Made by a program: the position numbers and the translations under genes. This document shows, piece by piece, positions 37,311 through 52,040 of a DNA stretch of 64,000 nt. The notes beneath the pieces were generated by a model, which worked only from the letters and a program-made list of their open reading frames with translations, was not told where the DNA came from and did not search any database. The stretch comes from an uncultured Acidobacteriota bacterium. GTDB taxonomy: Bacteria; Acidobacteriota; Thermoanaerobaculia; Multivoradales; UBA5704. Where the stretch lies: positions 2,048,001 to 2,112,000 of the forward strand of contig CAVYRF010000002.1 of NCBI GenBank assembly GCA_963770895.1, read 5' to 3'. How positions within the stretch are numbered: position 1 is the stretch's first letter; the number at the start of each line of letters is the position of its first letter.

Positions 37311-38785
37311 ATGTGCCAGATGCGCCGGCGCAGCGCGGCGGCGGCGCATGCCGCCACGCAGAGCCATCCGAACCAGTCGCCCAGGCGCGCATAGGGCGTC
37401 GGGCGACCAGGGCCGAGCGGGGCCGCGGCCAGCAGGGTGGCGGCCGGCGCGTCGGCGCTCCCGGCGGCGCCGACGACGCGGCCGTAGCGGTCGACCACCG
37501 CCAGCTCGCCGTTGCGGGTGGCGTGCACGACGGTGAAGCCGCTTTCGACGCTGCGCAGCACGGCGATGCCGACGCGCGACCAGCCGTCGACGTCGAAGTC
37601 CCAGGCGGGCTGCAGCACGACGCTGGCGCCGGCGCGGGCGTAGCGGCGAGCCAGGGCGGGGTAGTCCAGATCCTTGCAGATGACGACGCCGAAGCTGCCG
37701 CCCGCGACCTGGCGCACCATGTCGGTGTGGCCGGGTGCGTAGGCGGCCTCAAGGCCGGGGACCGGGTGCTGCTTGGCGTAGTCGGCGAGCAGCCGGCCGT
37801 TGGGGTCGAACAGCCAGGCGCGATTCTGCCGCCGGCCGGCGGCTGGGTCCGCGGTGACGTCGACGCCGGCGATCAGGTAGACCGCGTTGGCCCTGGCCAC
37901 GCCGCCCAGCACCTGCTGCAGCCGGGCGGCTGCTGCCGGCTCGACGACGGCGATCTTTTCGGGCAGCGCGACCAGCCGCGCGCCGCGTGCGGCAAGCCCG
38001 GCGACGGCCCGCCCGTAGTCGGCCCACATCGCGTCGGCGTCGCGCCCGCGCGGCTCGGCTGTCTCCATCGCCGGACCGCGGTCGATCGCGGCCAGGCCCA
38101 CCGACAGCTCCGGCGCGGCTGGGCGGGCGGCCAGGCGTGCCGTGCCGTAGCCGAGCGCCAGCAGGATCAACGCCGCCGGCAAGCCGTACGCCAGCCAGGG
38201 ACGGTCGATGTCGCGGCCCCGGTAGCAGGCGATCGCCACCGTCGAGGCGAACAGGCTGAAGAGGAAGATCACCCCCGCCGCGCCGGTCCAGGCGGCGACC
38301 TGCAGCACCGGCAGAGCCGCCACCTGGCTGAACACCATCGTGCCGGCCGAGCCGTGCGGCGACAGCTCGGTGACCAGGGTGTCGAGGCCGGCCCACAGGG
38401 CCGGGTACAGAAAGACGATCGACCAGCGACGCGATCGCACCACGGCGTCGCGCGTCTGGCCCACCACCAGGCCCCACGCCAGGGCGCGCAGGACGGCGAT
38501 CGCGATCGTCGCCACGGTGCCGGTGACCAGCAGGTAATAGGACGCCGTCGCCGCGGTGACGGCCAGGCCCGCCGCCATAGCCATCCACCGCGCCGGGCGG
38601 CCGCCGGAATGGAAGGCGGCGATCAGCAGCGGGATGGGCGCCAGCCACGCCGCCCACCACCAGGGATCGAGCATCGCCGCGCAGTAGAGCAAGGCTGCCG
38701 CCGCCATCGTCGCCGCCACCCGCCATGCCCAGCCGCGCCGGCCGGCGCCCGCCCGGTCCACCGTTCGGTCCATGGTTCGGTCCAT
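37307..38785 (-). CDS. Carbon-nitrogen hydrolase with N-terminal TMs (Lnt-like)
   Basis: Glu-Lys-Cys triad (LPEK, YAKQHP, ICKD), RSVESGF, TPYARLGDWF. Start uncertain (ORF open to 38881). Confidence 0.8.
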   Translation of the reverse strand: MDRTMDRTVDRAGAGRRGWAWRVAATMAAAALLYCAAMLDPWWWAAWLAPIPLLIAAFHSGGRPARWMAMAAGLAVTAATASYYLLVTGTVATIAIAVLRALAWGLVVGQTRDAVVRSRRWSIVFLYPALWAGLDTLVTELSPHGSAGTMVFSQVAALPVLQVAAWTGAAGVIFLFSLFASTVAIACYRGRDIDRPWLAYGLPAALILLALGYGTARLAARPAAPELSVGLAAIDRGPAMETAEPRGRDADAMWADYGRAVAGLAARGARLVALPEKIAVVEPAAAARLQQVLGGVARANAVYLIAGVDVTADPAAGRRQNRAWLFDPNGRLLADYAKQHPVPGLEAAYAPGHTDMVRQVAGGSFGVVICKDLDYPALARRYARAGASVVLQPAWDFDVDGWSRVGIAVLRSVESGFTVVHATRNGELAVVDRYGRVVGAAGSADAPAATLLAAAPLGPGRPTPYARLGDWFGWLCVAACAAAALRRRIWHI

Positions 38786-38875
38786 CGCCAGGTCGTTGCT
38801 ATCGGGCGCCACGGCAGGAAGATCCACGCCCTTGGTACGGTGCGGCCTGGGCGCAGGTTTATGCGGGCGACATGG

Positions 38876-38903
38876 TTGCAACTATAACCATGATGGCTAT
38901 AAT
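38876..38903 (+). promoter_or_regulatory. padR promoter with overlapping palindromic operator
   Basis: TTGCAA (38876-81), 16 nt, TATAAT (38898-903). Palindrome TATAACCAT-G-ATGGCTATA (38883-901, one mismatch) covers the spacer and -10. Confidence 0.7.
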
Positions 38904-38946
38904 CACTCCGGTACAAGCAGGGGTGCCACCCGGGAGAACCGTGCCG

Positions 38947-39309
38947 ATGACCAAGGAGACCGTCGAATCGCTGCAGCAGCTGCCGCTGGCGCCGGCAACG
39001 TTCCACGTACTGCTGTCGCTGGCCGATGCCGACCGGCATGGGTACGCCATCCTGCAGGAGGTCACGGCGCGCACCGCCGGTGAGATGCGGCTGAGCGCCA
39101 CGACGCTCTACCGCACCATCCATCGCATGCTGGAAGACGGCCTGGTGGTCGAGCTGCGCCAGCGGCCGCCCGCCCCCGGCGACGACGAGCGCCGGCGGTA
39201 TTACCGGATCACCCCGCTGGGGCTGGCGGCGGCTCGTGCCGAGGTGGGGCGGCTGCGCCAACTGGTCGAGCTGGCGGGCGCCAAGGGGCTGGCGCCGGGG
39301 AGGGCGTGA
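38947..39309 (+). CDS. PadR-family transcriptional regulator
   Basis: FHVLLSL...RHGYAI.QEV, TLYRTI.RM..DGLV, RRRYYRIT..G; overlaps the permease start. Confidence 0.9.
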   Translation: MTKETVESLQQLPLAPATFHVLLSLADADRHGYAILQEVTARTAGEMRLSATTLYRTIHRMLEDGLVVELRQRPPAPGDDERRRYYRITPLGLAAARAEVGRLRQLVELAGAKGLAPGRA

Positions 39310-41897
39310 TGCAAATCTACCGCGCCTTGCTGCATCTCTATCCGGCGGCGTTCCGCGCCGAATACGGCGGCGAGATGGCAACCATTTTCGCGCAGCGGCG
39401 GCGGGATGCCGCAAGCCCCTGGGCGATCGCGGCGCTGTGGGTCGCAACCGCCTGCGAAGCGCTGGCCGGCGCCGCCGCGGTGCACTGGGAGATCCTGCTG
39501 CGCGACCTGCGCTTTGCGGCGCGTTCGCTGCGGCGCTCGCCGGGATTCGTGCTCACCGCGATCCCGGTCGTGGCGCTCGGCATCGGTGCCAACACCGCGG
39601 CGTTCTCGATGGCCGACTTCGTGCTGATCCGCCCGCTCCCCTATCCCGCGGCCGACCGCCTGGTGGACATCTGGGAGACGGTACCCGGCTATCCCCACCT
39701 CGAACCGTCGCCCTCCAACTACCGCGATTGGCACCGCCTTGCCAAGGTGTTCGACGGCATGAGCGCCTCCTACCGCGTCGCGGTCAACCTGGTGGGGCAG
39801 GGGGAGCCGCAGCGCGTCCAGGTGGCGGCGGTCACTGCGGACCTGGCGGCGACCCTGCGCGTGCGGCCGCTGCTGGGCCGCTTCTTCACCGCGGCGGAAG
39901 ACCGCGCCGGCGCCGGCGGCACCGTGCTGCTTTCGTGGGGGCTGTGGCAGACCGTCTTTGCCGGCGATCCGCACGTTCTGGGTCGGCGTCTGCTGCTCGA
40001 CGGCGAGCCGTGCGAGGTGATCGGCGTCATGCCGCGCGACTTCAACTACCCCGACCGCGAAGCTCAGGTGTGGATGCCCGCCCGCTTCCCCGCAAACGCG
40101 TTCGACGACCGCACCAACACCTATCTCCTGGTGGTTGCCCGGCTGCGGCCCGGCGTCTCCCTGGAACAGGCCCAGGCGCAGATGAGCCTGGTCGCGGCGC
40201 AGCTGGAGCGCCAGTTCCCCAAGGAGAACGAGCACACCGGCGCCGCGCTGGTGCAGTTGCGCGACGAGCTGTCGGAGCGCTCGCGCATGCTGCTGTGGGC
40301 GCTGTGCGGCGCGGCGCTGTGCGTGCTGCTGATCGCCTGCGCCAACCTGGCCAACCTGCTGCTGGCGCGCGCCATGGCGCGGCAGCGCGAGCTGGACGTG
40401 CGCACCGCCCTGGGCGCCGGCCGCGAGCAGCTGGCGCGCCAGCTGGCGACCGAGAGCCTGAGCCTGGCCTGCATCGGCGGCCTGCTGGGCGTCGCGGTGG
40501 CCCACGCCGCGCTGCCGCTGTTCGCGCGGCTGGTGCCCACCGCGCTGCCGGTCGCCGGAGCCCCCACCATCGACCTGCGCGTGCTGGCTTTCGCCGGCCT
40601 GCTCACCGCCCTGACCGGCATCGGCTTCGGCATGCTGCCGGTGCTGCGCTTCGGCGGCGGCGGCGACCTGAGCGGTCTGCGCCAGGGAGTGCGCTCGGGC
40701 GGCGGTCGCCGCCAGCGCCTGCGCTCGGCGCTGGTGGTGGCCGAAGTCACGGTTTCGGTGGTGCTGCTGGTTTCGTCGGGCCTGCTGCTGCGCGCGCTGC
40801 TGCACCTGCAGGCGCGCGATCCCGGCTTTCAAGCCGCCGGGCTGATGACCGTGCGCACCGAGCTGCCGATGCCCAGATACGACCCGACGGCGCGCCGCGC
40901 CGCGTTTTACAACCGCGTCCTGGCCGACGTGCGGGCGCTGCCCGGCGTCTCCGCCGCCGGCTACACCTCCGCGCTGCCGATGGTGTGGCACGGCGGCATC
41001 TGGTCGGTCGGCGTCGCCGGCCGCCTGCAGAACGTGGCGGACCCGGACAAGGCGAGCCTGCGCTACGTCACCCCCGGCTACTTCGCCGCCATGCGCATCC
41101 CGCTGCGCCTGGGCCGCGACGTGGGCGACGGGGATGCGACCACGACGCCCTGGGTGGCGGTGGTCAGCGCCTCCTTCGCCCACCGGTACTGGCCGGGCCA
41201 GGACCCGCTGGGCCGGCATTTCGATCTGGCCTTCCACGACCGCGCGGTGGTGGGCGTGGTGGGCGACGTGCTCACCCGCGGCCCGGAGCGCGACAGCGAG
41301 CCGCAGGTCTACATCCCCTACCGCCAGGTCCCCGACGGCTGGCTGGTCGCCTACTCCCCCAGGGACCTGGCGGTACGGTCGACGCTAGGGCCCTCGGCGC
41401 TGCTGCCCGCGCTGCGCCGCATCGTCCGCGCCGCCGATCCCCAGCAGGCCATTTCCAGCGTGCAGACCATGGACCAGGTGGTGGCCGACGAGACGGCGCC
41501 GCGCACGGTGCAGGTGCGCGCCCTGGTGGGCTTTGCCGCCGTCGCCTTCCTGCTCGCCGGCGTCGGTATTCACGGCCTGCTCGCCTTTGGCGTCTCGCAG
41601 CGAGCGGGCGAGATCGGCGTGCGCATGGCGCTGGGCGCCCGCCGCCGTGCCATCCTCGCCATGGTGGCGCGGCAAGGTCTGCTGCTGGGCGCGGTGGGCG
41701 CCGCGGCCGGCCTGGCGGCGGCCTATGCCTCCGCGCGCACCATGGCAGCCCTCCTGGCCGGCATCCAGCCCGCCGACGCCACCACCTACGTCGCCGCCGC
41801 GGCGCTCTGCATCGCCATGACCGCGACCGGCAGCCTGCTCCCCGCCGCCCGCGCCGCCGGCATCGATCCCGCCGCCATCATCCGCCGCGAGTCGTAA
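39306..41897 (+). CDS. ADOP-type duplicated MacB/FtsX permease
   Basis: LLHLYPAAFRAEYGGEM, DLRFAARSL, LGIGANTA, LIACANLANLLLAR, EIGVRMALGA; no ATPase gene adjacent. Confidence 0.92.
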   Translation: MMQIYRALLHLYPAAFRAEYGGEMATIFAQRRRDAASPWAIAALWVATACEALAGAAAVHWEILLRDLRFAARSLRRSPGFVLTAIPVVALGIGANTAAFSMADFVLIRPLPYPAADRLVDIWETVPGYPHLEPSPSNYRDWHRLAKVFDGMSASYRVAVNLVGQGEPQRVQVAAVTADLAATLRVRPLLGRFFTAAEDRAGAGGTVLLSWGLWQTVFAGDPHVLGRRLLLDGEPCEVIGVMPRDFNYPDREAQVWMPARFPANAFDDRTNTYLLVVARLRPGVSLEQAQAQMSLVAAQLERQFPKENEHTGAALVQLRDELSERSRMLLWALCGAALCVLLIACANLANLLLARAMARQRELDVRTALGAGREQLARQLATESLSLACIGGLLGVAVAHAALPLFARLVPTALPVAGAPTIDLRVLAFAGLLTALTGIGFGMLPVLRFGGGGDLSGLRQGVRSGGGRRQRLRSALVVAEVTVSVVLLVSSGLLLRALLHLQARDPGFQAAGLMTVRTELPMPRYDPTARRAAFYNRVLADVRALPGVSAAGYTSALPMVWHGGIWSVGVAGRLQNVADPDKASLRYVTPGYFAAMRIPLRLGRDVGDGDATTTPWVAVVSASFAHRYWPGQDPLGRHFDLAFHDRAVVGVVGDVLTRGPERDSEPQVYIPYRQVPDGWLVAYSPRDLAVRSTLGPSALLPALRRIVRAADPQQAISSVQTMDQVVADETAPRTVQVRALVGFAAVAFLLAGVGIHGLLAFGVSQRAGEIGVRMALGARRRAILAMVARQGLLLGAVGAAAGLAAAYASARTMAALLAGIQPADATTYVAAAALCIAMTATGSLLPAARAAGIDPAAIIRRES

Positions 41898-41963
41898 CCG
41901 CAGCCGCGGAGCAACGCCGGTGCACGCCGGAGAGCCCGCGCCGCCGGCGTGCCCCCGCGCGCA

Positions 41964-42575
41964 TCATGGCGCCGCGCTGGCCAGGTGGGCGGCCAGGGCC
42001 GCGGTGATGGGCAGCCCCGCCGCCTGTTCGACATACAGGAACTGCCCCGCCGGGTTGACCTCGAAGAACACGTATTCGCCCTCGGGGGTGACCCGCATGT
42101 CGATGGCGCCGTACTCCAGCCCGAGCCGGCGCATGAAGGCCAGGAGCTTTGCCGACACCGCGTCGGGCAGCTGGTGCGGGCGGTAGGTGATGTTGGTGTT
42201 GAAGCGCACGTCGACCTTGTATTCGCCGTTCTCCAGGTTGGCCTCGGCAGCCAGCACGCGGTCGCCGATCACCGTGATGCGCAGGTCCAGCACGCCGGGC
42301 ACGTAGCGTTGAAAGATCACCGGCGCAAAGCGAACCGCGGCCGCCAGCTCCTCCTCCTCCGGGCGCAGCAGGCGGGTTTCGCGCCACGCGTTGTAGGTCT
42401 GCAGGAACGGCTTGTAGATCACCGCGCCGGGGTGGCGCCGCCAAAACTCGCGCGCCTCGTCGGGGTCGTTGGTCATCAAGGTTTCGGGCAGCACCAGCCC
42501 CGCCTGCTTGGCCAGTTTGAGCTGCCACGGCTTGTGCGCCGCGGCGCCGTCGCGCACCGGATCGTTGATCCAAAG
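41964..42575 (-). CDS. MvdC/MvdD-type ATP-grasp peptide ligase, N-terminal domain missing (possible pseudogene)
   Basis: LWINDP...AAHKPWQL, PETLMTND, IYKP, PVIFQRYV, DLRITVIG, YGAIDM, FFEVNPAGQF. Homology runs upstream of the GTG at 42557 almost to the in-frame TAG at 42603-05. Confidence 0.8.
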   Translation of the reverse strand, partial: LWINDPVRDGAAAHKPWQLKLAKQAGLVLPETLMTNDPDEAREFWRRHPGAVIYKPFLQTYNAWRETRLLRPEEEELAAAVRFAPVIFQRYVPGVLDLRITVIGDRVLAAEANLENGEYKVDVRFNTNITYRPHQLPDAVSAKLLAFMRRLGLEYGAIDMRVTPEGEYVFFEVNPAGQFLYVEQAAGLPITAALAAHLASAAP

Positions 42576-42602
42576 CGATCGCAGGATCGATCCGGTCTGG
42601 GG

Positions 42603-43319
42603 CTAGGTCTGGGACGGGCCGCCGCCCGGATTGAAAACGTTTTCCGCCAGCGTGCCACCGGGCTCGACCAGCGTCGCGCCGCCGACGTCGGTGATGGGAT
42701 CCTTGTAGTGTTCCTTGAGGGTGTCGGTGATCGGGTCCTTGTAATGTTCTTTCAAGGTATCCGTGGGGCCGTCCTTGGACACCTCCTTGAGGGTCTCGTA
42801 AATGCCCTTTTCGACCAGCGAGTGGGGGCTGAGCTGCTGTTGCAGGCCCGCCGCCTGGTACGCCAAAGGCGCCTGCGGCGCGTGGTGAGGCGTCGCCAGC
42901 ACAAAAGGCGCAAATCCGCCGCCCACGCCCAGCTCGCCGATCCGATCGTCCGGCACGTCCTTGCGCACCTTGTGGATCGGGTCGCCGGAGATCGGGTCCT
43001 TGGCCGCGGACTTGTCGGAGATCACCTTGGGAACCCCGCCAAACCGCAGCTCGGGCGCCACGTCCGCGTGGGCGCCATCCAGCTCCAGCCTGACCACCGC
43101 CTGGGCCGGCACGGTGTACAGCACGTGATGGTGCCTCACCGCATCCACCGGAATCTCGCGCGACGGACCGCCCCCGGCAGGAGTGAACAGAAACGACTCC
43201 GCCTTCCCCCCGCGCGCCACGGTGCCGACCACCGACACCGTGCCGCCGCCTTCCGGCAGATCGCGCAGGAAGTCGCCAAAGCTCGATCCCCGCGAGTTTT
43301 GATGCAGATCTTCACTCAT
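42603..43319 (-). CDS. Candidate graspetide precursor with repeated cores
   Basis: AGGAGG RBS, PFVLATPHHA motif, three tandem T-L-K-E-x-x-K-D-x-x-T-D units, two TLxE units; directly upstream of the ATP-grasp gene. Confidence 0.75.
   Translation of the reverse strand: MSEDLHQNSRGSSFGDFLRDLPEGGGTVSVVGTVARGGKAESFLFTPAGGGPSREIPVDAVRHHHVLYTVPAQAVVRLELDGAHADVAPELRFGGVPKVISDKSAAKDPISGDPIHKVRKDVPDDRIGELGVGGGFAPFVLATPHHAPQAPLAYQAAGLQQQLSPHSLVEKGIYETLKEVSKDGPTDTLKEHYKDPITDTLKEHYKDPITDVGGATLVEPGGTLAENVFNPGGGPSQT
42687..42794 (-). repeat. Three 36-bp coding tandem repeats
   Basis: 42759-94 TLKEVSKDGPTD; 42723-58 and 42687-722 both TLKEHYKDPITD, with 6 nucleotide differences, all synonymous. Confidence 0.9.
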
Positions 43320-43534
43320 GATGCCGCCTCCTCGGGGCGCTCAGCCCCACCAGCAGACGGCGCCATCCGCCGTCATGCCTTATAGAAGGCGAAGAAGCCA
43401 AAGAATTGTTACGATGGGATCGCCTGCGTTTCCCAGCGAAATGGTCGTAGCGCGTCCGTCTATGGGGTAGTAAGGCGAAGATGGGGATTTGTGGTTGACG
43501 GTGGTCACTCCTCCCGCCGGCAGCCTGAGGATTC

Positions 43535-46500
43535 TTGAGCCTGCTATCGATGCATGCCTCAACTTGCGAGAGCGCGCTTGCTGCTCGTGCCAACTGCCGG
43601 TCGGCCACTACCGGTGGTGCACGGCGGCCGGTCGGCCATCGAACACCGTCGCGGGACCGTCTGATTCGATCCCTCGGCACCGCCTTCGGAGTTGCCGTCC
43701 TTGCGGCCGCCGGATGCCAGAGGTCGCAACGCTCCGGGCTTGGGGACTTGGTGGCGGCCCTGGGCTCGCGCCGCGCGGTCGAGCCGCGCCTGACTGGTGG
43801 ATTCGCCTCTGCTCCGTGCCGGCCGGCGCCAGCCTTGGACCACCTCCCGACACCCGACTGCTCGCCACCGCCGCCGCAGCTATCGGACGCTGGCCGCCTG
43901 GCCGCCGCGCACGCCCTCGCCAACTTGCGCAAGCGGGAGGCGATGAGCCCCACGGCTGCCGCGGAATCGCTGCAGGCGCAGGCAGTCGTGCATCTCGTGG
44001 TGGGTGGAGCGAGCGATGCCGCCGATCGCGCCGTGGCCGAGTTGGAGCGGGCAACGGCCTTACCGAGCGCCGGCGGGCCAGAGCGTAGTGCTCGCCTGTG
44101 GAGCGACCTCGCGGCGGCCTACCTGGTGCGAGCCGGACGCAAGGACTCTGCGATGGACCTCATCCGATCGCTGGAAGCCGCGGGTGCGGCGCTGGCGGCG
44201 GATCCCCAACTGCCCGAGGCGCGCTTCAACCGTGCCTTGGCGCTGGAACGACTCGGTTTGCGCTTACAGGCGACCGTTGCGTGGGAGGAAGTCCGGCATA
44301 CCGATCATGCTGCCGGTTGGGTGGCCGAGGCGCGGCTCCATCTCGCCGATCTGCGGCAGCTTCGCGGCCGGGGAGCTTGGCAGGAGCGACGCGCCGACCT
44401 GGACCGCGCATCGCTCACCGGCGATGCCGCGACCGTGCGCCGGCTGGTTGCCGCCGCTCCCCAAGCGGCGCGAGAGTACGCGGTCGAGGATCTGCTGGGG
44501 CGTTGGGGTGCGGCGTGGCTCGACCGGCAGAGCGGGTTGGAGGGTGACGACGAGCGGCGGTCGTTGCAGATCGCCCGGGTCGTGGGCCGGGCGCTGGCCG
44601 ACGGGGGCGGCGACGCCACAGCCGCCGGCGCGGTGAGCGCTATCGATCGCGCCGGCGGAGCCGGCGGGTCACCAGGAACCGGCCGAGGGGCCGAGGCCCG
44701 GCTGGAAGCCCTGGCCAGAGGTCATCGAGCCTACAGCACAGGCATGGCGCTGAGTCAACGGCTGGCCATCGAAGACGCCGGCCCTCTTCTGGTGGACGCC
44801 CGCCGATGGCTGGAGCGCGGCGCCAGTCCGGTGGCAGGTTGGGCGGCTGTGGCCCTGGCAGGGATCGCGGGGTACCGAGCGAGGCTTGGCGAGGCCGCCG
44901 CGGAGTTCCACGACATCCTTCGCGAGACTGCGCCGGACCGGCTGCCGGCGCTGATCGGGCGCGCCCGCTGGGGCCTTGCCTGGCTGGAGGGGCGCCAGGG
45001 GCACCTGGACGTAGCGTTGGACCTCTACCGCCAGGCGGCAGACAGCTATCGGGCGGCCGGCGAGACCGAAAACGTCGGTGCGGTGGAAGGTTTGATCGGT
45101 GAAAGCCTGCAGCTGCTCGGCGAGGACCCGCTCGCCTGGCGGCATCGCTACCTGGCTTTGGCCCGTCTCGAAGACGACCTGTCGTCACTCCACCTGCATT
45201 CGGCGCTGCTGGAGGCGGCACGGAGCGCAGCCGAGGAGGGGGCGCCGCGGGCGGCGTTGGAACTGGCGAGCGAGGACGAGGCCGTGGCTGCCCGCTCGGG
45301 CGATCCGCTGAACCTCGCTGAGGTGCTGCTCTGGCGTAGCCGGATCCAGCTGCGGGCGGGCAGGCCGGCGAGCGCTCGGGAGGATCTGGCTCTGGCCCGG
45401 CAGCAGGTCGCTCGCGGCCCGGCAGGCCTGATGCGGCTGCGCTCCGAGATCGACATCGAGTATGCGGAGGCCGATCTGATGCGGCGCTCGCAGCCCGCCG
45501 CGGTGCTTGCTCCGCTGTCTCGCGCCGTCGCGTTTTATGCCGCCGGGGGGCTGGTCTGGTCGCTGATGCCCGCGTATGCAAGCCGCGCCCGCGCCGAGAT
45601 CGCTGTGGGCCGGCAGGCCGCGGCCGACGCCGACTTCGCCGCCGCCGTCGGGCTGTATCAACGCGAGGGCCGCTCCACGACCCTACGGGCGCAGCGTCGA
45701 GCCTTCGCCGCGGAGGCACGGGAGCTCTGTGAGGCGATGATCGCCTGGCGGGCAGACCACGCACCGCCGCCGGCGCTGGCAGCCCTGGCCGCCTCCGAGC
45801 AGGCGCGTGCCCTGGCGCTGCCCTACCTGCCCGCTGCGGCGGCAGCGCCGGTCTACGTCCTTCCTCCAGGCGTGGCGGTGCTCGAATATGCAGCCCTTCC
45901 CGATCGGCTGCTCATCTGGTTGGTCTCCTCGGGCGGCGTGCAGCTCTTCGAGCGCGCACTGCCGGCGGCGGCGCTCGCCGAGCAGGTGCGCCTGTTCGAC
46001 GCGACTCTCCTGCGTCGCTCCAGTGGCGAGCTTGATGCAGCGGCCAAGAGGCTCTATGCCGAGCTGATGCCTGCGGGTCTGGACGCGGTGGCGGGCGGCG
46101 CCGAGCTGGCGATCGTGCCGGATCTGTCGCTCAACCAGCTGCCCTTCGCGGCGCTGGTGAATCCGCGCACCGGCCGCTACCTGGTCCAGGAACACGCCCT
46201 GGCTCTGGCGGCAAGCGTCGCGTCCTATGCCGCTGCCGGCAGCGGCGCTGTGGACAGGGGCGGCCCTTCCGCCTGGTCGGCACTGCTGGTCGGCGACCCT
46301 GCGTTCGACGGGCGAGACTTCCCCTGGCTTTCCCGGCTCCCACGAGCCGAGGCCGAGGTTCGGACGCTTGGCGCGATCTACCCACGGTCGACGACCCTGA
46401 TGCGAGAACGGGCCACCAAGAGCGCCGTGCTGGCTGAAATCCCGGCGCATGAAATCCTCCACTACGCCGGGCACGCGGTTGCCAATGCCGAGGAGCCAGG

Positions 46501-46912
46501 ATTGTCGTATCTGCCACTCGCTACAGCGCCCCAAGCGGCTGGCGGCGGCTCAGGCGCCCTCTTTGCCGAGGAACTGGAGGGACGTCGCCTTGGCCGGCTG
46601 CGTCTGGTCGTGCTCTCCGCTTGCAGCACCATCAAGCCGAGAGACACCCGCGCCGGTGGTCCGGCAGGTTGGGCGCAACCCTTCCTCGAGGCCGGTGCCG
46701 CGGCAGTCCTGGGCACTCTTTGGAACGTGGACGACCGCGCCGCCGAGCGCTTGCTGACCGATTTTCACCGCCGCTTCCGGCGCCAGGGAGATGCCGCGCA
46801 GGCCTTGCGCGAAGCGCAGCTCGCCATGCTGGCGGATCCCGACGGTTCATTCAGTCACCCTGCGACATGGGCCGGCTTCGCTTTGGTCGGCCGCTTACAT
46901 CAGCAACCCTGA
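43535..46912 (+). CDS. TPR-CHAT (caspase-like) protease
   Basis: TPR-like helices (LPEARFNRALALE), LAIVPD..L..LPF.AL, catalytic HYAGHA and VVLSAC, FLEAGA..VLGTLWNVDD, ALREAQL, WAGF. Start uncertain. Confidence 0.9.
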   Translation: MSLLSMHASTCESALAARANCRSATTGGARRPVGHRTPSRDRLIRSLGTAFGVAVLAAAGCQRSQRSGLGDLVAALGSRRAVEPRLTGGFASAPCRPAPALDHLPTPDCSPPPPQLSDAGRLAAAHALANLRKREAMSPTAAAESLQAQAVVHLVVGGASDAADRAVAELERATALPSAGGPERSARLWSDLAAAYLVRAGRKDSAMDLIRSLEAAGAALAADPQLPEARFNRALALERLGLRLQATVAWEEVRHTDHAAGWVAEARLHLADLRQLRGRGAWQERRADLDRASLTGDAATVRRLVAAAPQAAREYAVEDLLGRWGAAWLDRQSGLEGDDERRSLQIARVVGRALADGGGDATAAGAVSAIDRAGGAGGSPGTGRGAEARLEALARGHRAYSTGMALSQRLAIEDAGPLLVDARRWLERGASPVAGWAAVALAGIAGYRARLGEAAAEFHDILRETAPDRLPALIGRARWGLAWLEGRQGHLDVALDLYRQAADSYRAAGETENVGAVEGLIGESLQLLGEDPLAWRHRYLALARLEDDLSSLHLHSALLEAARSAAEEGAPRAALELASEDEAVAARSGDPLNLAEVLLWRSRIQLRAGRPASAREDLALARQQVARGPAGLMRLRSEIDIEYAEADLMRRSQPAAVLAPLSRAVAFYAAGGLVWSLMPAYASRARAEIAVGRQAAADADFAAAVGLYQREGRSTTLRAQRRAFAAEARELCEAMIAWRADHAPPPALAALAASEQARALALPYLPAAAAAPVYVLPPGVAVLEYAALPDRLLIWLVSSGGVQLFERALPAAALAEQVRLFDATLLRRSSGELDAAAKRLYAELMPAGLDAVAGGAELAIVPDLSLNQLPFAALVNPRTGRYLVQEHALALAASVASYAAAGSGAVDRGGPSAWSALLVGDPAFDGRDFPWLSRLPRAEAEVRTLGAIYPRSTTLMRERATKSAVLAEIPAHEILHYAGHAVANAEEPGLSYLPLATAPQAAGGGSGALFAEELEGRRLGRLRLVVLSACSTIKPRDTRAGGPAGWAQPFLEAGAAAVLGTLWNVDDRAAERLLTDFHRRFRRQGDAAQALREAQLAMLADPDGSFSHPATWAGFALVGRLHQQP

Positions 46913-47911: not shown

Positions 47912-48907
47912 TCAGCGGGGCAGGAGAATGGCGGCCAGGATGGCGAGGCCGAGCAGGGCGTAGAGCACGCGGTAGCGGGATTGCAGGCGGCGGATGCTGG
48001 CGAAGGTGAGGTTGTCGCGGAGGGCGGCGAGCGAGCTGTAGAGGTGGAGGGCGTAGAGGGGCAGGGCGACGGCGGCGAGCCAGGTGGGCAGGACGTGGCG
48101 GGTGGCCAGGGCGATGAGCAGGGCGTACGCCAGGGTGAAGCCGGCCAGGCCGGCCAGGAAGGTGGGGGTCTTGCCGAAGGTCACGGCGTTGGTCCTGATG
48201 CGGTTGCCGGCGTCGCCGTCGAAGTCCCGGACTTCCTGGTTGAGGTGTCCGGCCGCAAAGGTCAGGCCGAAGAACGCAGCCAGGGTGAGGTCGGCGGCGC
48301 CGCAGGTGCGGAAGAGGGCGACGCCGAGCAGGAAATGGAGCGTGCCGCCGGCCAGGTGGAGGAGCGAACCGAGCACCGGGATGCCCTTGCCCGCCGATCC
48401 GGGTTGCGAATAAATGTAGCCGAGGGCGGCGATGGCGGTGGCGATGCCCAGCGGGCGCGCGCCCAGGGCGGTGAAGAGGGTGAGGCTGAGGGCCGCAAGG
48501 GCGATCCAGGTGAGGCGGATGGCGTCGCTGCTGATGCCCTTGGCGGCGAAGACACTGGCCGCGCGGTTGGCGTCGTTGAGGTCGGCTTCCAGTCCCGCCC
48601 AGTCGTTGAGGGCGAAGACGTAGGCGACCAGCAGGCAGCTGGCGATCAGGAGGACGCCGAGCGCGGCCAGCTTGCCGACGCTGGGCGCGCCGATGGCGAA
48701 GGCGGCGCCGAGCAGCGGCGACCCCTGCAAGATCAGGATCTCGCGATAACGCAGGCACGAGAGGTAGCGGCGAACGAGCCCGGCGGTGGGAGGGATCGAA
48801 GCGCCCGGAGCGGTCCGCTCGCGATCGCCCGCCGGCTGCGCCGGAAAGCCTTGCGGTGCGGCCAGGCGGTTATCGGAGACCTGCATCGCCACCTTGCCGC
48901 CGCTCAT
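47912..48907 (-). CDS. UbiA-family prenyltransferase
   Basis: About 8-9 TMs, NDWAGLEADLND, YIYSQP...K, NQEVRDFDGD...RT. Start 48907 or 48886; overlaps the upstream gene's end. Confidence 0.82.
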   Translation of the reverse strand: MSGGKVAMQVSDNRLAAPQGFPAQPAGDRERTAPGASIPPTAGLVRRYLSCLRYREILILQGSPLLGAAFAIGAPSVGKLAALGVLLIASCLLVAYVFALNDWAGLEADLNDANRAASVFAAKGISSDAIRLTWIALAALSLTLFTALGARPLGIATAIAALGYIYSQPGSAGKGIPVLGSLLHLAGGTLHFLLGVALFRTCGAADLTLAAFFGLTFAAGHLNQEVRDFDGDAGNRIRTNAVTFGKTPTFLAGLAGFTLAYALLIALATRHVLPTWLAAVALPLYALHLYSSLAALRDNLTFASIRRLQSRYRVLYALLGLAILAAILLPR

Positions 48908-51446
48908 GTTCTAGATACAACCTGAGCCAAAGCGCATACCCGAAGTCCTCCGACCAATAGAAGCGAGGTGTGTGCGCCGTGAAATCGTTGTGATAGAGGA
49001 GCGGCGGGTTCAGCCGCACCGATGCGAAGTCATCTTGCGCCAGGTTGCGCAACAGCGCAAGGGTCTGGCTGGATGCCGCCGCGGCGGGGGAATTTGTGCC
49101 GCGCAGGGCGGTCAGCAGGCGCCCCGCGTCCAGCCAGATCTGCTGGCCTGCCTCCGCCATGTTCAACCGTTGCTCGGGGATGCGCAACGGGCATCCCGCC
49201 AGCGGCAGGTCGGCCTGCCGCAGCAGCGGCACCAGGGGCGCGGCCTGGTAGTAGACCCACAGCCGCGGCTCCGCGATCGTGCGGCGCAGGGCGTCGCACA
49301 GGGCGGCGGCGGCCGGCGGGTCGGCCTGGGCGAGCAGCAGCAGCACGTGCATCTGGATGCCCACGTCGGCAGGGTCCGGGTCCGTCCCCGGATCGAGGCA
49401 CTGGTAGCGCTCGCGTGGCGCGAGCCAGGTGCGGTACAGGCCGTCGCGGGTGCGGTATTGCGCCAGGACGGCCAGCGCCCGCGCCAGCAGCTGGCGGTCG
49501 CCGGTTCCCGCCAGCCGCCACGTCAGCGCGGTGTCGTCGGCGTCGGGGGTGATGACGCAGCCAAGGGTGTGGATGGTGGGGCCGTCGGGCCGGCCGTGAT
49601 AGCGCACCAGCCCGCTTTCCTCGATCTGGCCGCTCAGGTGCGCCCGCGCGCGAGCCAGGTTGTCGTCGAGCCCCGCCGCCGCCGCGACCGGCGCCAGCAG
49701 GTCCAGCATCATCGCCGTCAGATAAGTGTTCATCTCGGCGTGCGGTTGAGTGAAGCGCGGCGCCGGCGTGTGCCAGGTGAGCCAGAAGCCTGCCGGCCGC
49801 TGGTCGCCCGCGATGCGCCGCGCCGCCTGCCGCGCCGCCGCGGCGAGCCCGCCGGCGTCGCTCCGGCGCAAGGTTCCGCCCGCCGCACCGGCGTCCGGCG
49901 GCGGCTGCTGCTGCGGAGCCGCGACCGGTGCTCCCGGTCCGGCGGGCGAAGCCGGATCGCGCCGCGCCACCGGCGCCGGCACCAGGGTGGCGCCGTGATC
50001 TGCCGGCGGCAGGGTGACGCCGTTGCGAGCCGGCGGGGCCGCCGGCCGCACGGCCGGGCGGTCGCCGCCGTGGAACGGCAGGGTGAAGGCGGCCGGCTTG
50101 TGGCGCGGCTCGACCAGGAAGGGGATGTTGTGGGGATCCCAGGTGGCGCGCATCTCTCCGGGCGCTCCGGGGCGCACGGCGAAGATCGCGGCATCGCTGG
50201 CGCCGCCGTACCAGAAAGCGCCCACCGCCTGGATGGCGATCGAGACGGCGATCGCCGCGGCGAAGGCGGCGCGGCCGGCGCCGCGCAGGGCGGCGAGGGC
50301 GGGCGGCAGCATCCACACCAGCAACGGCACCAGGTCGGTGAGCCAGCGCTGTCCCCAGGAACGGCCGCCCCGCCAATCGGCCTTGGCGTAAAAGAGGATC
50401 TGGACGGCCATGGCGATGGCGACGGCGATGGTCAGCCAGCGCGTGCGCGGGTCGCGCAGGGCGCGGCGGAAGCCGGCCGGGACCAGCAGCAGGAACGGCG
50501 AGAAGACCAGCAGGCCTCGCGTCGGGCTGACCAGCATGCCGGCGACGCCGGCCAGCAGCTCGTTGCGGAAGAAGTCCGACTGCTTCTGCCTGGGGATGCC
50601 GTAGGCGCCGATGAGCTTGCCGGTCACCGCCAGGTTGTAGATCACGACCAGGCAGATCGGCACCGCCGCGCCGGCCGCCAGCCAGGCTGCCCGGCGGTAG
50701 CCGGCCCAGCGCAGGGCGTACAGCCCGAGCGCCGCCGCCAGCAGGGCGTCGGGCGGGCGGTTGCCGGCGATCAATCCGCACAGCACGCCCACCGCCAGCG
50801 CCCGTCCGGCGGTGCACGGACCGGTGAGCAGGAGCAGCGCGCCGACCAGCAGCAGCTCGGCAAGCCCATGCTGCCACAGGGCCTGGCTGCCGATCATCCA
50901 GGTGTCGGTGCCGAAGGCGAAGGCCGCCGTCAACAGCAGGGCGTCCGCGGGCTCGGCGCGCCGCCGCAGCAGCAGGTAGAACAGCGCCGACGCCGCGGCG
51001 GCAAGCAGCGACGAGACGCCCTTTTCCATCGCCGCCGCCGTGTGCAGCAACCGCGACGCCGTCCAGCCGCGGTGGTTGAGATAGGCGACCGCGGGCAGGT
51101 AGAGCGGCGCAATCAGCACCGGGAGCACCACCGGGTAGAGGGAGATCGAATGGTCGTCGCGGCCCTGCACGATCCAGTAAGGCTGCGGATGGCCTTCGGT
51201 CGTGGCCTGCAGGATGGGGTCGAGCAGGAGGGTGCCGTACCGCCACATGGCGAACGGCTGATAGCGCGCGGGCAGCGAGTCGCCGGTGCCGACGACCCGC
51301 AGGTTTGCGTTGTAGACCACCAGGCAGAGCAGCCCCACCAGCAGGCTGATGCGCAGGTCGCGGCGCCGCCGCGCCGGCTCCGGGGCGCCGGCGGGGATCG
51401 ACACTCCGGCGCCTGCGGGAGCTGGCTTTGCTTGCGAGTCCGTCAA
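48870..51446 (-). CDS. Fusion of a GT-C-like membrane domain and a class II terpene-cyclase-like domain
   Basis: N-terminal multi-TM domain (YNAN...GD, SQALWQH, WGQRWL.D), Ala/Pro linker, C-terminal domain with QW-like segments and PDADDTA. Start uncertain (TTG at 51446). Confidence 0.65.
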   Translation of the reverse strand: MTDSQAKPAPAGAGVSIPAGAPEPARRRRDLRISLLVGLLCLVVYNANLRVVGTGDSLPARYQPFAMWRYGTLLLDPILQATTEGHPQPYWIVQGRDDHSISLYPVVLPVLIAPLYLPAVAYLNHRGWTASRLLHTAAAMEKGVSSLLAAAASALFYLLLRRRAEPADALLLTAAFAFGTDTWMIGSQALWQHGLAELLLVGALLLLTGPCTAGRALAVGVLCGLIAGNRPPDALLAAALGLYALRWAGYRRAAWLAAGAAVPICLVVIYNLAVTGKLIGAYGIPRQKQSDFFRNELLAGVAGMLVSPTRGLLVFSPFLLLVPAGFRRALRDPRTRWLTIAVAIAMAVQILFYAKADWRGGRSWGQRWLTDLVPLLVWMLPPALAALRGAGRAAFAAAIAVSIAIQAVGAFWYGGASDAAIFAVRPGAPGEMRATWDPHNIPFLVEPRHKPAAFTLPFHGGDRPAVRPAAPPARNGVTLPPADHGATLVPAPVARRDPASPAGPGAPVAAPQQQPPPDAGAAGGTLRRSDAGGLAAAARQAARRIAGDQRPAGFWLTWHTPAPRFTQPHAEMNTYLTAMMLDLLAPVAAAAGLDDNLARARAHLSGQIEESGLVRYHGRPDGPTIHTLGCVITPDADDTALTWRLAGTGDRQLLARALAVLAQYRTRDGLYRTWLAPRERYQCLDPGTDPDPADVGIQMHVLLLLAQADPPAAAALCDALRRTIAEPRLWVYYQAAPLVPLLRQADLPLAGCPLRIPEQRLNMAEAGQQIWLDAGRLLTALRGTNSPAAAASSQTLALLRNLAQDDFASVRLNPPLLYHNDFTAHTPRFYWSEDFGYALWLRLYLEHERRQGGDAGLR

Positions 51447-51608
51447 CGGCGGCTGTCCAGAGGTTGTAAGGGTACCATGCGCGCCCGCGCCGCCGGCAGC
51501 TCCCACCGCCTTGGCCGCCGGCAGGGTTCCGCCGCGAAGAAGAGTGCCGGCGCGCCCGGCACCTGTGGCAAGATCTGGCAAAACGCCGCAAGATCTGAGG
51601 AGAGCGGA

Positions 51609-52040
51609 ATGTCCAAGGTCAACACCGGCCGGGTGCTGGTTGCCGGGCTGGTCGCGGGTCTGGTCATCGATGTCGTCGATTTCGTGGTCAACGTCCCGAT
51701 CCTCGGCCAGCAGTGGAAGGACGGTACCGCGGCGCTCGGGGTCAGGGAGGGGTCGGTGGCGATGCAGTCGGCCCTGGGCTGGATCTGCCTCGACCTGTTC
51801 GCCGGCCTCTTCACCGCCTGGCTGTACGCCGCCATCCGGCCGCGCTTCGGCGCGGGGGCGAAGACCGCCCTGTGCGCCGGCTTCGCGGTCTGGTTGCTCG
51901 AGCACTTCGCGCTCGGCAGCCTCTTCTGGAACGGTCTCTACCCGCTGGCGCTGGTCGTTTCGTCGTCGGTGGGGGGGCTGGTGGCGAACCTTGCCGGCGG
52001 TTGGGTCGGCGGCAAGCTCTATCGGGAAGACGCCGCCTAG
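51609..52040 (+). CDS. Small 4-TM hypothetical membrane protein
   Basis: GAGGAG RBS, MSKVNTGRVLVAGLVAG, WLYAAIRPRFGAG.KTAL; 143 aa. Confidence 0.75.
   Translation: MSKVNTGRVLVAGLVAGLVIDVVDFVVNVPILGQQWKDGTAALGVREGSVAMQSALGWICLDLFAGLFTAWLYAAIRPRFGAGAKTALCAGFAVWLLEHFALGSLFWNGLYPLALVVSSSVGGLVANLAGGWVGGKLYREDAA

Follow-up and report, generated by a model that had tools for sequence, protein, structure and literature searches.

Known graspetides are protease inhibitors. Among the described systems, corallotide (group 15; CorA/CorB from Corallococcus) is made from the ~22-kDa precursor CorA, whose five KxxxD repeats are closed into isopeptides by a TIGR04187-type enzyme (PMC13097080). The same source, an updated RODEO survey from 2026, distinguishes 43 graspetide groups, including uncharacterised ones with long repetitive precursors (PMC13097080). 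According to another survey, the graspetide leader signature Phhx(1,2)h, related by Makarova et al. to the microviridin PFFARFL helix, is typically found in the first 30 residues, and the cut-off applied to graspetide precursors was that of neighbours of ≤150 amino acids (PMC8939145). In the engineered leader-to-follower version of ThfA/ThfB, the recognition sequence works C-terminal to the cores, an arrangement called unnatural in that report (PMC13003496). The present study deals with a gene pair located in a 64,000-nucleotide stretch of DNA, hereafter the window, from an uncultured Acidobacteriota bacterium (GenBank assembly GCA_963770895.1, contig CAVYRF010000002.1, positions 2,048,001 to 2,112,000), i.e. 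a gene for a 238-residue repeat protein followed by what is left of an ATP-grasp ligase gene. With all the evidence taken together, the protein is quite probably a graspetide-type substrate of a kind that is cross-linked by a cognate ligase in intact relatives, but that has been orphaned here by a deletion in the ligase gene. The elements of the pair are as follows:

42603..43319, minus strand: gene of the putative graspetide-type substrate of 238 amino acids, from the list of open reading frames (ORFs), with an ATG start and the stop codon included
43327..43333, minus strand: GAGGAGG, a Shine-Dalgarno-like sequence, 7 nt upstream of the ATG of the 238-residue ORF
43077..43280, minus strand: N-terminal folded domain (residues ~14-81), a small beta-barrel of one helix and five strands as predicted by AlphaFold2
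42942..43031, minus strand: K/D-rich units 5' of the PFVLATPHHAP motif (residues ~97-126), with Asp at +5 of K103 and K120
42876..42908, minus strand: PFVLATPHHAP (residues 138-148), a leader-like motif presumed to be recognised by the ligase
42687..42794, minus strand: three tandem 12-residue putative core units (residues 176-211) with nine [K/T][E/D] dyads
42759-42794, minus strand: the first of these units, TLKEVSKDGPTD (residues 176-187)
42723-42758 and 42687-42722, minus strand: the two copies of the unit TLKEHYKDPITD (residues 188-199 and 200-211, respectively)
42642..42674, minus strand: TLVEPGGTLAE tail units (residues 216-226), kept as TLVEGGGTLAEG in relatives according to the alignments
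42578..42602, minus strand: 25-nt segment separating the stop codon of the precursor from the breakpoint, specific to the deleted allele
41964..42577, minus strand: 5'-truncated ATP-grasp maturase gene with the central and C-terminal domains only, its stop codon being at 41964-41966

An earlier note on this DNA, made from its letters alone, had pointed out the 238-residue ORF with a strong ribosome-binding site (RBS), the PFVLATPHHA motif, the three 12-residue units and the TLVE and TLAE units, all of which are indeed present, the last two starting at residues 216 and 223, respectively. The GC-rich DNA of the window contains many long spurious ORFs that arise by chance; the 238-residue ORF is nevertheless considered a real gene because the GC content at third codon positions (GC3) is highest in its own frame (0.84 vs 0.71 and 0.45 in the other two). 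The precursor search found it in a single copy in its own genome, and the protein has neither a match to a Pfam or NCBIfam family nor a usable match in the ESM Atlas. The dyads of the three units are positioned at residues 178, 182, 186, 190, 194, 198, 202, 206 and 210, i.e. every 4 residues, and they follow the order KE, KD and TD three times over between residues 178 and 211. All six lysines of the units have an aspartate at position +5, and the same is true for 8 of the 12 lysines found after the N-terminal domain. The idea that each unit supplies Thr/Lys donors together with Glu/Asp acceptors is supported by these regularly spaced dyads.

Between the twin TLKEHYKDPITD units there are 6 base differences out of 36 positions, spread over 5 codons, none of which alters the amino acid, in agreement with what had been noted; the peptide was retained in only 4 of 200,000 random six-substitution variants of the 12-residue unit generated in a Monte Carlo simulation. 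This argues for selection on the unit peptide, which is counted here as support. The same twin units are also present in P0002, a relative sharing 70% identity. Since Tandem Repeats Finder (score ≥30) revealed no DNA-level array, the repeat is preserved at the peptide level only. A scan of positions 41700-43700 for promoters and terminators was uninformative, yielding no promoter-like site and two terminator-like sites against 1.2 expected.

By its sequence, the 238-residue ORF is a member of an as yet undescribed family whose repeat proteins adjoin an ATP-grasp enzyme of the side-chain cross-linking type. The word-indexed search retrieved 22 relatives of 168-407 residues, while the profile search resulted in 335 clusters at 50% identity with E ≤1e-3, 211 with E ≤1e-10 and 31 with E ≤1e-30. 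The family, for which there is no Pfam or NCBIfam model, covers proteins of about 170-640 residues, the protease-fused ones reaching up to 636. Among the closer relatives searched, two of nine further genomes of the genus yielded the protein, and it was not found in the 31 further genomes from the family and the order.

The linkage to ATP-grasp genes was followed from both sides. The loci collected through the precursor originate from pattern scans of species genomes (3) and of metagenomes (8) and from a genome of the same genus (1). With the L008 ligase as the tblastn query—the frame of 325 residues includes 14 extra N-terminal ones—a full-length ATP-grasp gene, i.e. matches covering query residues 1-15 to 314-325, was detected downstream on the same strand in 11 out of 11 assessable loci (L008, L009, L010, L016, L017 and L019-L024); L018, which ends 405 nt past the match, was left out. 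This was also the check proposed in the earlier note, and it turned out in favour of the linkage. The near-duplicates L008/L017, L019/L020 and L021/L022 reduce the 11 loci to 8 distinct cases, drawn from a metagenome-assembled genome (MAG) of Thermoanaerobaculia, two MAGs of Alphaproteobacteria and metagenomes. In the reverse direction, the ligase was searched at E ≤1e-60 against 400 other genomes of the phylum; three of them gave a match, and in each of these the gene directly upstream codes for a protein that has K/D/T/E repeats and a PF[AI].. motif. The adjacency therefore holds for 14 of 14 assessable loci in two phyla, with very different repeats and N-terminal modules, and each relative's locus has a single ligase gene. 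The neighbouring gene is in both the relatives and the window locus a co-directional ATP-grasp gene of the MvdC/MvdD/TIGR04187 type. The best solved relatives of the intact L008 ligase are the microviridin lactam ligase MdnB 5ig8 (E 1.7e-44), AMdnB 7m4s, 9bou, MdnC 5ig9, CdnC and PsnB.

The sequence PFVLATPHHAP is invariant in one family alignment and forms its best-conserved stretch. Of 164 family proteins examined, 122 have a motif resembling PF[VAI][LM]ATPH, which is situated mid-protein 113 times, within the last fifth of the protein 7 times and within its first 30% twice. Its beginning, PFVLA.., fits the Phhx(1,2)h leader pattern, though at residue 138. The second common feature is the spacing: the repeat regions of 154 proteins contain 1192 lysines, and position +5 from these is Asp or Glu in 82% of cases and Asp in 73%, the corresponding values in shuffled backgrounds being 12% and 8%. 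The repeats themselves are of several types—8-mers TLKExxxD, the 12-mers of the window, DKxPPx, TSVYADxxx, FDPKxSDPKQ and KHPIxD—and arrays of KDPIxD, situated upstream of the motif in relatives, are the counterpart of the units found at residues ~97-126 of the window protein. In several relatives, such as those with DKFPPQ or FDPK arrays, Lys and Asp are the only possible partners.

Two kinds of relatives with unusual arrays may be mentioned separately. L019 (611-2020) and L020 (760-2112) encode proteins of 450-469 residues with about 30 TSVYAD(x3-4) units, interspersed with HTIKEMAKDPIQD units; the donors are Thr and Ser only, so that these members would be of the ester type. L030 (351-1478, 1462-2460 and 2423-3919 of the reverse complement) encodes a member in which the FDPKxSDPKQ unit is repeated dozens of times and the motif, GPFILTT, is C-terminal; downstream come the ligase gene and next a radical SAM gene of the B12-binding type (PF04055, PF02310), an order that hints at extra tailoring.

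The N-terminal module of the family is interchangeable, since the small beta-barrel may be replaced by a subtilisin, an astacin or a chymotrypsin-like protease. The protease-fused members are the following:

L021, 440-2347: subtilisin S8 module (PF00082, E 3.8e-27, for L021/L022)
L022, 1993-3903: subtilisin S8 module, as in L021
L023, 659-2233: GDSG chymotrypsin-like domain, with weak Pfam matches
L029, 177-1484: astacin (HExxHxxGxxHE, recognised by eye)
L031, reverse strand, 118-1485 of the reverse complement: astacin, likewise recognised by eye

An astacin is also carried by the Pfam-labelled family members P0015, P0020 and P0021, and most of the protease-fused members finish in a coiled-coil-like tail. 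In the main texts of the library searched, no match was found to five family motif strings, including FVLATPH and TLKEHYKD, and none of the publications retrieved with ATP-grasp, graspetide and protease terms combined was, judging by titles and abstract openings, about protease-fused precursors.

The statement that an ATP-grasp gene follows the precursor gene in the same direction has proved correct, but the gene is not a full ligase gene, as only the C-terminal ~195 residues of the enzyme, corresponding to ligase residues ~122-311, are encoded. The frame of this remnant is open from 42602 over 212 codons, the listed ORF being 41964..42557, and it is the same frame as that of the precursor with one TAG between them. 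The homology to ligases starts, co-directionally, 25 nt past the precursor stop and, in the alignment with intact ligases, at ..LRSLWINDP. The remnant corresponds to positions 119-311 of 312 of the TIGR04187 model (E 1.8e-52, below the family cut-off), with the MvdD and MvdC models coming next, and shares 76.7% identity with the L008 ligase, its intact orthologue from the same genus, over residues 124-315 of 325. In the L008 and L024 ligases, Pfam assigns residues 1-116/117 to the domain PF21068 (MvdD pre-ATP-grasp), and this domain or the equivalent region is present in the ligases of all 14 relatives, whereas Pfam detects no PF21068 in the window remnant. The window copy thus contains only a part of the pre-ATP-grasp plus ATP-grasp architecture of a complete ligase and is the only one among the family loci examined without an intact ligase. 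With regard to the start of translation, no Shine-Dalgarno-like sequence could be seen by eye ahead of the first in-frame start, the GTG at 42557. Because the gene is truncated and its N-terminal domain is gone, the copy in the window is probably not a working system. It should be noted, however, that the remnant is no more diverged than the intact orthologues—its identity to the L024 ligase is 70.6%, the same as that between L008 and L024 (70.6%), and its identity to the L020 ligase is 69.2%, compared with 68.0% between L008 and L020—and therefore the loss would be recent, or the piece is still constrained.

The junction was examined by comparing contigs from public soil metagenomes with positions 41700-43600 of the window, at low depths (2-6). 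The datasets X1 and X2 come from one study, which may include the source sample of the genome, and X5 comes from another. Record 9 of X2 (151 nt, 1 mismatch) covers 42464-42614 and bridges the junction in the same way as the window does. Record 3 of X1 (432 nt) matches 42517-42577 without a mismatch and continues with 371 nt of other sequence; record 16 of X5 departs from the window after 42577, too. The loose end (30 letters, reverse complement, read by eye) encodes ..FAGAWQSTAA directly ahead of LWINDP, the corresponding sequence of L008 being FHGAWQSTKA-LWINDP, and the continuation in X1 and X5 reads as the upstream ligase portion that the window lacks. The breakpoint is placed at 42577/42578, since it is there that the X1 and X5 contigs leave the window into the 5' part of the ligase. 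With the L008 and L024 ligases used as rulers, the deletion would be of ~0.4-0.5 kb. A real deletion allele is likely, an assembly artefact being a minor rival.

Two further observations were made with these contigs. An X2 contig aligned at 42826-43122, within the precursor gene, differs from the window at 10 bases and lacks three bases at 42916, and therefore a close variant of the precursor coexists in the study of X2. In a contig of X5, position 43030 is connected to 42491 through 21 letters of different sequence, which could represent a rearranged relative or a chimeric contig; this joint probably comes from another organism.

When compared with corallotide, the window family resembles it in the large precursor with an N-terminal part and repeated Lys...Asp motifs, and the sequences KLKVADDP (L021) and TLKFADDP (L023) of the protease-fused relatives are similar to the published VKIVADDP unit. 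The spacing is different, however, being KxxxD (i->i+4) in corallotide and KxxxxD (i->i+5) in the window family. The 2-oxoglutarate (2OG)-Fe(II) oxygenase and beta-lactamase described as neighbours of corallotide are not found by Pfam in the two genes flanking the window pair, and neither a 2OG oxygenase nor a beta-lactamase was seen in the ORF list of L008. The PFVLATPHH motif and the beta-barrel N-terminal domain, for their part, are not mentioned in the available corallotide description. Also the sources differ, corallotide originating from Corallococcus and the window family from Acidobacteriota and Alphaproteobacteria. Concerning the microviridins (group 1; precursor MdnA, ligases MdnB/MdnC), MdnB and MdnC are the best solved relatives of the ligase, PFVLA.. 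parallels the PFFARFL helix, the core units start with T-x-K and the donors are both Thr and Lys. Two ligases are, however, involved there, in contrast to the single ligase, the multi-copy 238-residue precursor and the motif at residue 138 here, and neither the TxKxPSD core nor the PFFARFL leader was seen by eye in the 238-residue sequence. Plesiocin and thuringinin (groups 2 and 3) share with the window family the tandem cores modified by one ATP-grasp enzyme. Their precursors are, on the other hand, short and their cross-links are esters only, whereas Lys donors dominate in the window family; their cores TTxxxxEE and TxxTxxxExxD, as quoted in the earlier note, do not occur in the window protein.

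The earlier view that the core differs from the microviridin, plesiocin and thuringinin motifs can thus be retained, while its novelty is not fully upheld, given that the uncharacterised RODEO groups 34/35 may be the same kind of system. Group 35 consists, like the window family, of a synthetase and a precursor only (PMC13097080); the window family may or may not belong to groups 34/35. With respect to the position of the recognition sequence, the follower of ThfA/ThfB was engineered, whereas the motif of the window family is naturally internal (113/122) or near the C-terminus (7/122). Searches for graspetides have mostly been confined to short neighbours of ATP-grasp genes, and the window family, with substrates of 170-640 residues, would have been missed by the survey PMC8939145 with its ≤150-residue filter.

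The putative substrate is not an ordinary short precursor peptide; the 238-residue protein has an N-terminal domain confidently predicted to be folded. In the AlphaFold2 model, obtained with a 15-row alignment, the predicted local distance difference test (pLDDT) value is ~90 for residues 30-80 and under 50 across most of residues 95-238, which are predicted to be disordered. A fold search with VIA-align gave weak SH3/Sm/OB-like matches (best Z 4.0, rmsd 2.7, 53 aligned residues), i.e. small barrels of the SH3, eIF5A, EF-P and Hfq-like kind, too weak to name the fold family, and Foldseek with the same model against the PDB returned nothing at E ≤1e-3. The idea of the precursor N-terminal domain being a stand-in for the lost N-terminal domain of the ligase was rejected, since intact relatives have both domains and the precursor fold is a small barrel, not the pre-ATP-grasp fold.

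The substrate would accordingly consist of three parts, namely the small folded beta-barrel, PFVLATPHHAP as a docking motif in the interior, and a disordered array of short units with Lys/Thr as donors and Asp/Glu as acceptors; such Thr/Ser/Lys donors and Asp/Glu acceptors, conserved in their spacing, are present in the window protein. The dedicated ATP-grasp ligase of the MdnB/MvdD-like kind that intact relatives encode directly downstream would, by analogy with the microviridin, plesiocin and corallotide enzymes, bind this motif. As the best solved relatives of the intact ligase are MdnB, MdnC, CdnC and PsnB, the standard graspetide mechanism may be assumed: the ligase would phosphorylate Asp/Glu carboxylates with ATP to acyl phosphates, which would be attacked by Lys amines to form isopeptides and by Thr hydroxyls to form esters. 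The main cross-link is most likely a Lys-Asp lactam, as suggested by the family-wide K(i)-D(i+5) spacing, with Thr-Glu/Asp esters as the second type; isopeptides between Lys and Asp across six residues are the first guess because of the relatives having only Lys and Asp as partners and because of the dominant +5 spacing. The nine dyads placed every 4 residues would be compatible with two patterns, overlapping i->i+5 rings that form a chain or small i->i+3 rings that follow one another. In the window genome, the deletion would have taken the intergenic region together with the first ~120 codons of the ligase; most likely, the precursor has thereby been orphaned and is not cross-linked any longer. 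It is expected to remain unmodified on account of the lost pre-ATP-grasp domain, of the missing Shine-Dalgarno-like sequence and of the paralogous maturases being only 28-34% identical. The graspetide reading put forward earlier can thus be maintained for the family, based on the 14 linked loci, the donor/acceptor spacing and the leader-like motif, but not for the window copy with its broken ligase.

The binding step was modelled by complex prediction, in which the L008 ligase paired with its own precursor (residues 180-316) scored 0.54, while the best of three controls scored 0.00, giving weak support. Of 80 solved complexes, 58 attain the mark used for this score, as do 2 of 110 mismatched pairs; scores of ≤0.60 go with only 7 of those 80 solved complexes, yet with both passing mismatches. 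The runs share at least 20% of contacts, with the partner pLDDT being at least 28. The pass may reflect prior knowledge of, or likeness to, ligase-leader complexes of this kind that have already been solved, rather than binding.

As far as other genes are concerned, the 8.16-Mb genome encodes five more full-length TIGR04187-like maturases, L001, L003, L004, L005 and L006, at C2:203414, C2:4465948, C1:379543, C1:1837807 and C1:851388 of G000, respectively. In L001, a small upstream ORF (1033-1383; internal Met, MKKHAQSSKG...) resembles a conventional short precursor. The genes surrounding the pair in the window are these:

43535-46912, plus strand: CHAT-domain protein of 1125 residues (PF12770, C-terminal, E 9e-57), divergent from the precursor gene
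38725-41897, plus strand: PadR-family regulator (PF03551) and then an 863-residue MacB_PCD/FtsX permease, convergent with the ligase remnant
47912-51905, minus strand: UbiA-family prenyltransferase (PF01040) overlapping the end of a 1011-residue ORF without a Pfam match

Both the CHAT gene and the MacB-like permease were considered as parts of the system and dropped, neither of them being next to the pair among the L008 ORFs; for that reason the CHAT gene is probably unrelated.

Several observations weigh against the protein being a cross-linked graspetide-type substrate that lost its ligase in the window. With 238 residues it exceeds the ≤150 residues usually accepted for graspetide precursors, and the score of the predicted complex is weak, one of the three runs giving only 0.12. 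X1, the best holder of the window sequence (0.79 of words, with pieces identical to the window), reaches 42577 and then appears to run into the 5' part of an intact ligase, with no listed X1 contig bridging the junction; the population therefore also has a working allele, which leaves some room for a mis-join in the assembly. If the deletion were such an artefact, or a minority variant, the real genome would have an intact ligase and a complete two-gene graspetide system, and the continuation past 42577 found in X1, and again in X5 from a different study, is in line with this. Record 9 of X2, on the contrary, crosses the junction independently of the assembly, which is near-complete and in 3 contigs, and both alleles can coexist in a soil population, so that an intact ligase in the real genome is regarded as unlikely.

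It is also to be considered that the remnant is conserved and its frame open, and the deletion could thus be very recent, or the remnant could still be selected or partly functional, and that the genome has the five other TIGR04187-like genes. The locus might on this basis still work, the 238-residue protein—with its gene intact and preceded by a strong RBS—being cross-linked either by the truncated ligase, whose 212 open codons are as conserved as the intact orthologues, or by one of the paralogous maturases. Open frames on the scale of 212 codons are, however, common by chance in the GC-rich DNA of the window; the whole PF21068 domain, kept as such or as an equivalent region by all 14 relatives, is gone; and the GTG at 42557 is, by eye, without a Shine-Dalgarno-like sequence upstream. 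The five paralogues, for their part, share no more than 28-34% identity with the cognate-type ligase, the single sequence in their loci that approaches the motif pattern is PFALAG in a non-homologous frame of L006, and the precursor is present as a single copy. A still functioning locus is consequently held to be decidedly unlikely. Least convincing of all, and very improbable indeed, is the possibility that the 238-residue protein is no ATP-grasp substrate but a disordered K/D-rich repeat protein involved in metal binding or scaffolding, standing beside the ligase incidentally. Its predicted, mostly disordered state and the missing Pfam, NCBIfam and Atlas matches would agree with such a role, in contrast to the adjacency in all 14 assessable loci of two phyla despite the diversity of the repeats and N-terminal modules, the strongly conserved donor/acceptor spacing and the presence of the leader-type motif.

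Based on the above, the preferred reading remains that of a graspetide-type substrate cross-linked in intact relatives and orphaned in the window. The features that would be new here are graspetide chemistry on proteins, an internal docking motif, the K(i)-D(i+5) rule and the protease fusions. Going further, it may tentatively be proposed, with clearly less conviction, that the family represents an undescribed whole-protein graspetide class, in which a portable PF[VA][LM]ATPH motif lies within or behind the repeats as a natural follower and a single MdnB-like ligase staples K(i)-D(i+5) arrays, and in some members Thr-Asp/Glu units as well, into a ladder of lactam/lactone rings of a new topology. 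An array of this kind, attached to a beta-barrel or a protease, could be a built-in cross-linked inhibitor or a protease-proof stalk. As to the locus itself, its intact and ligase-deleted alleles coexist in soil populations, and an intact precursor next to a maturase fragment should not be counted as a working cluster. If the cross-links prove true, the family would offer a compact natural recognition tag acting from inside or behind its substrate and a very regular Lys-Asp stapling pattern for peptide and protein engineering, and the graspetide arrays fused to three protease families would bear on what graspetides do for their producers.

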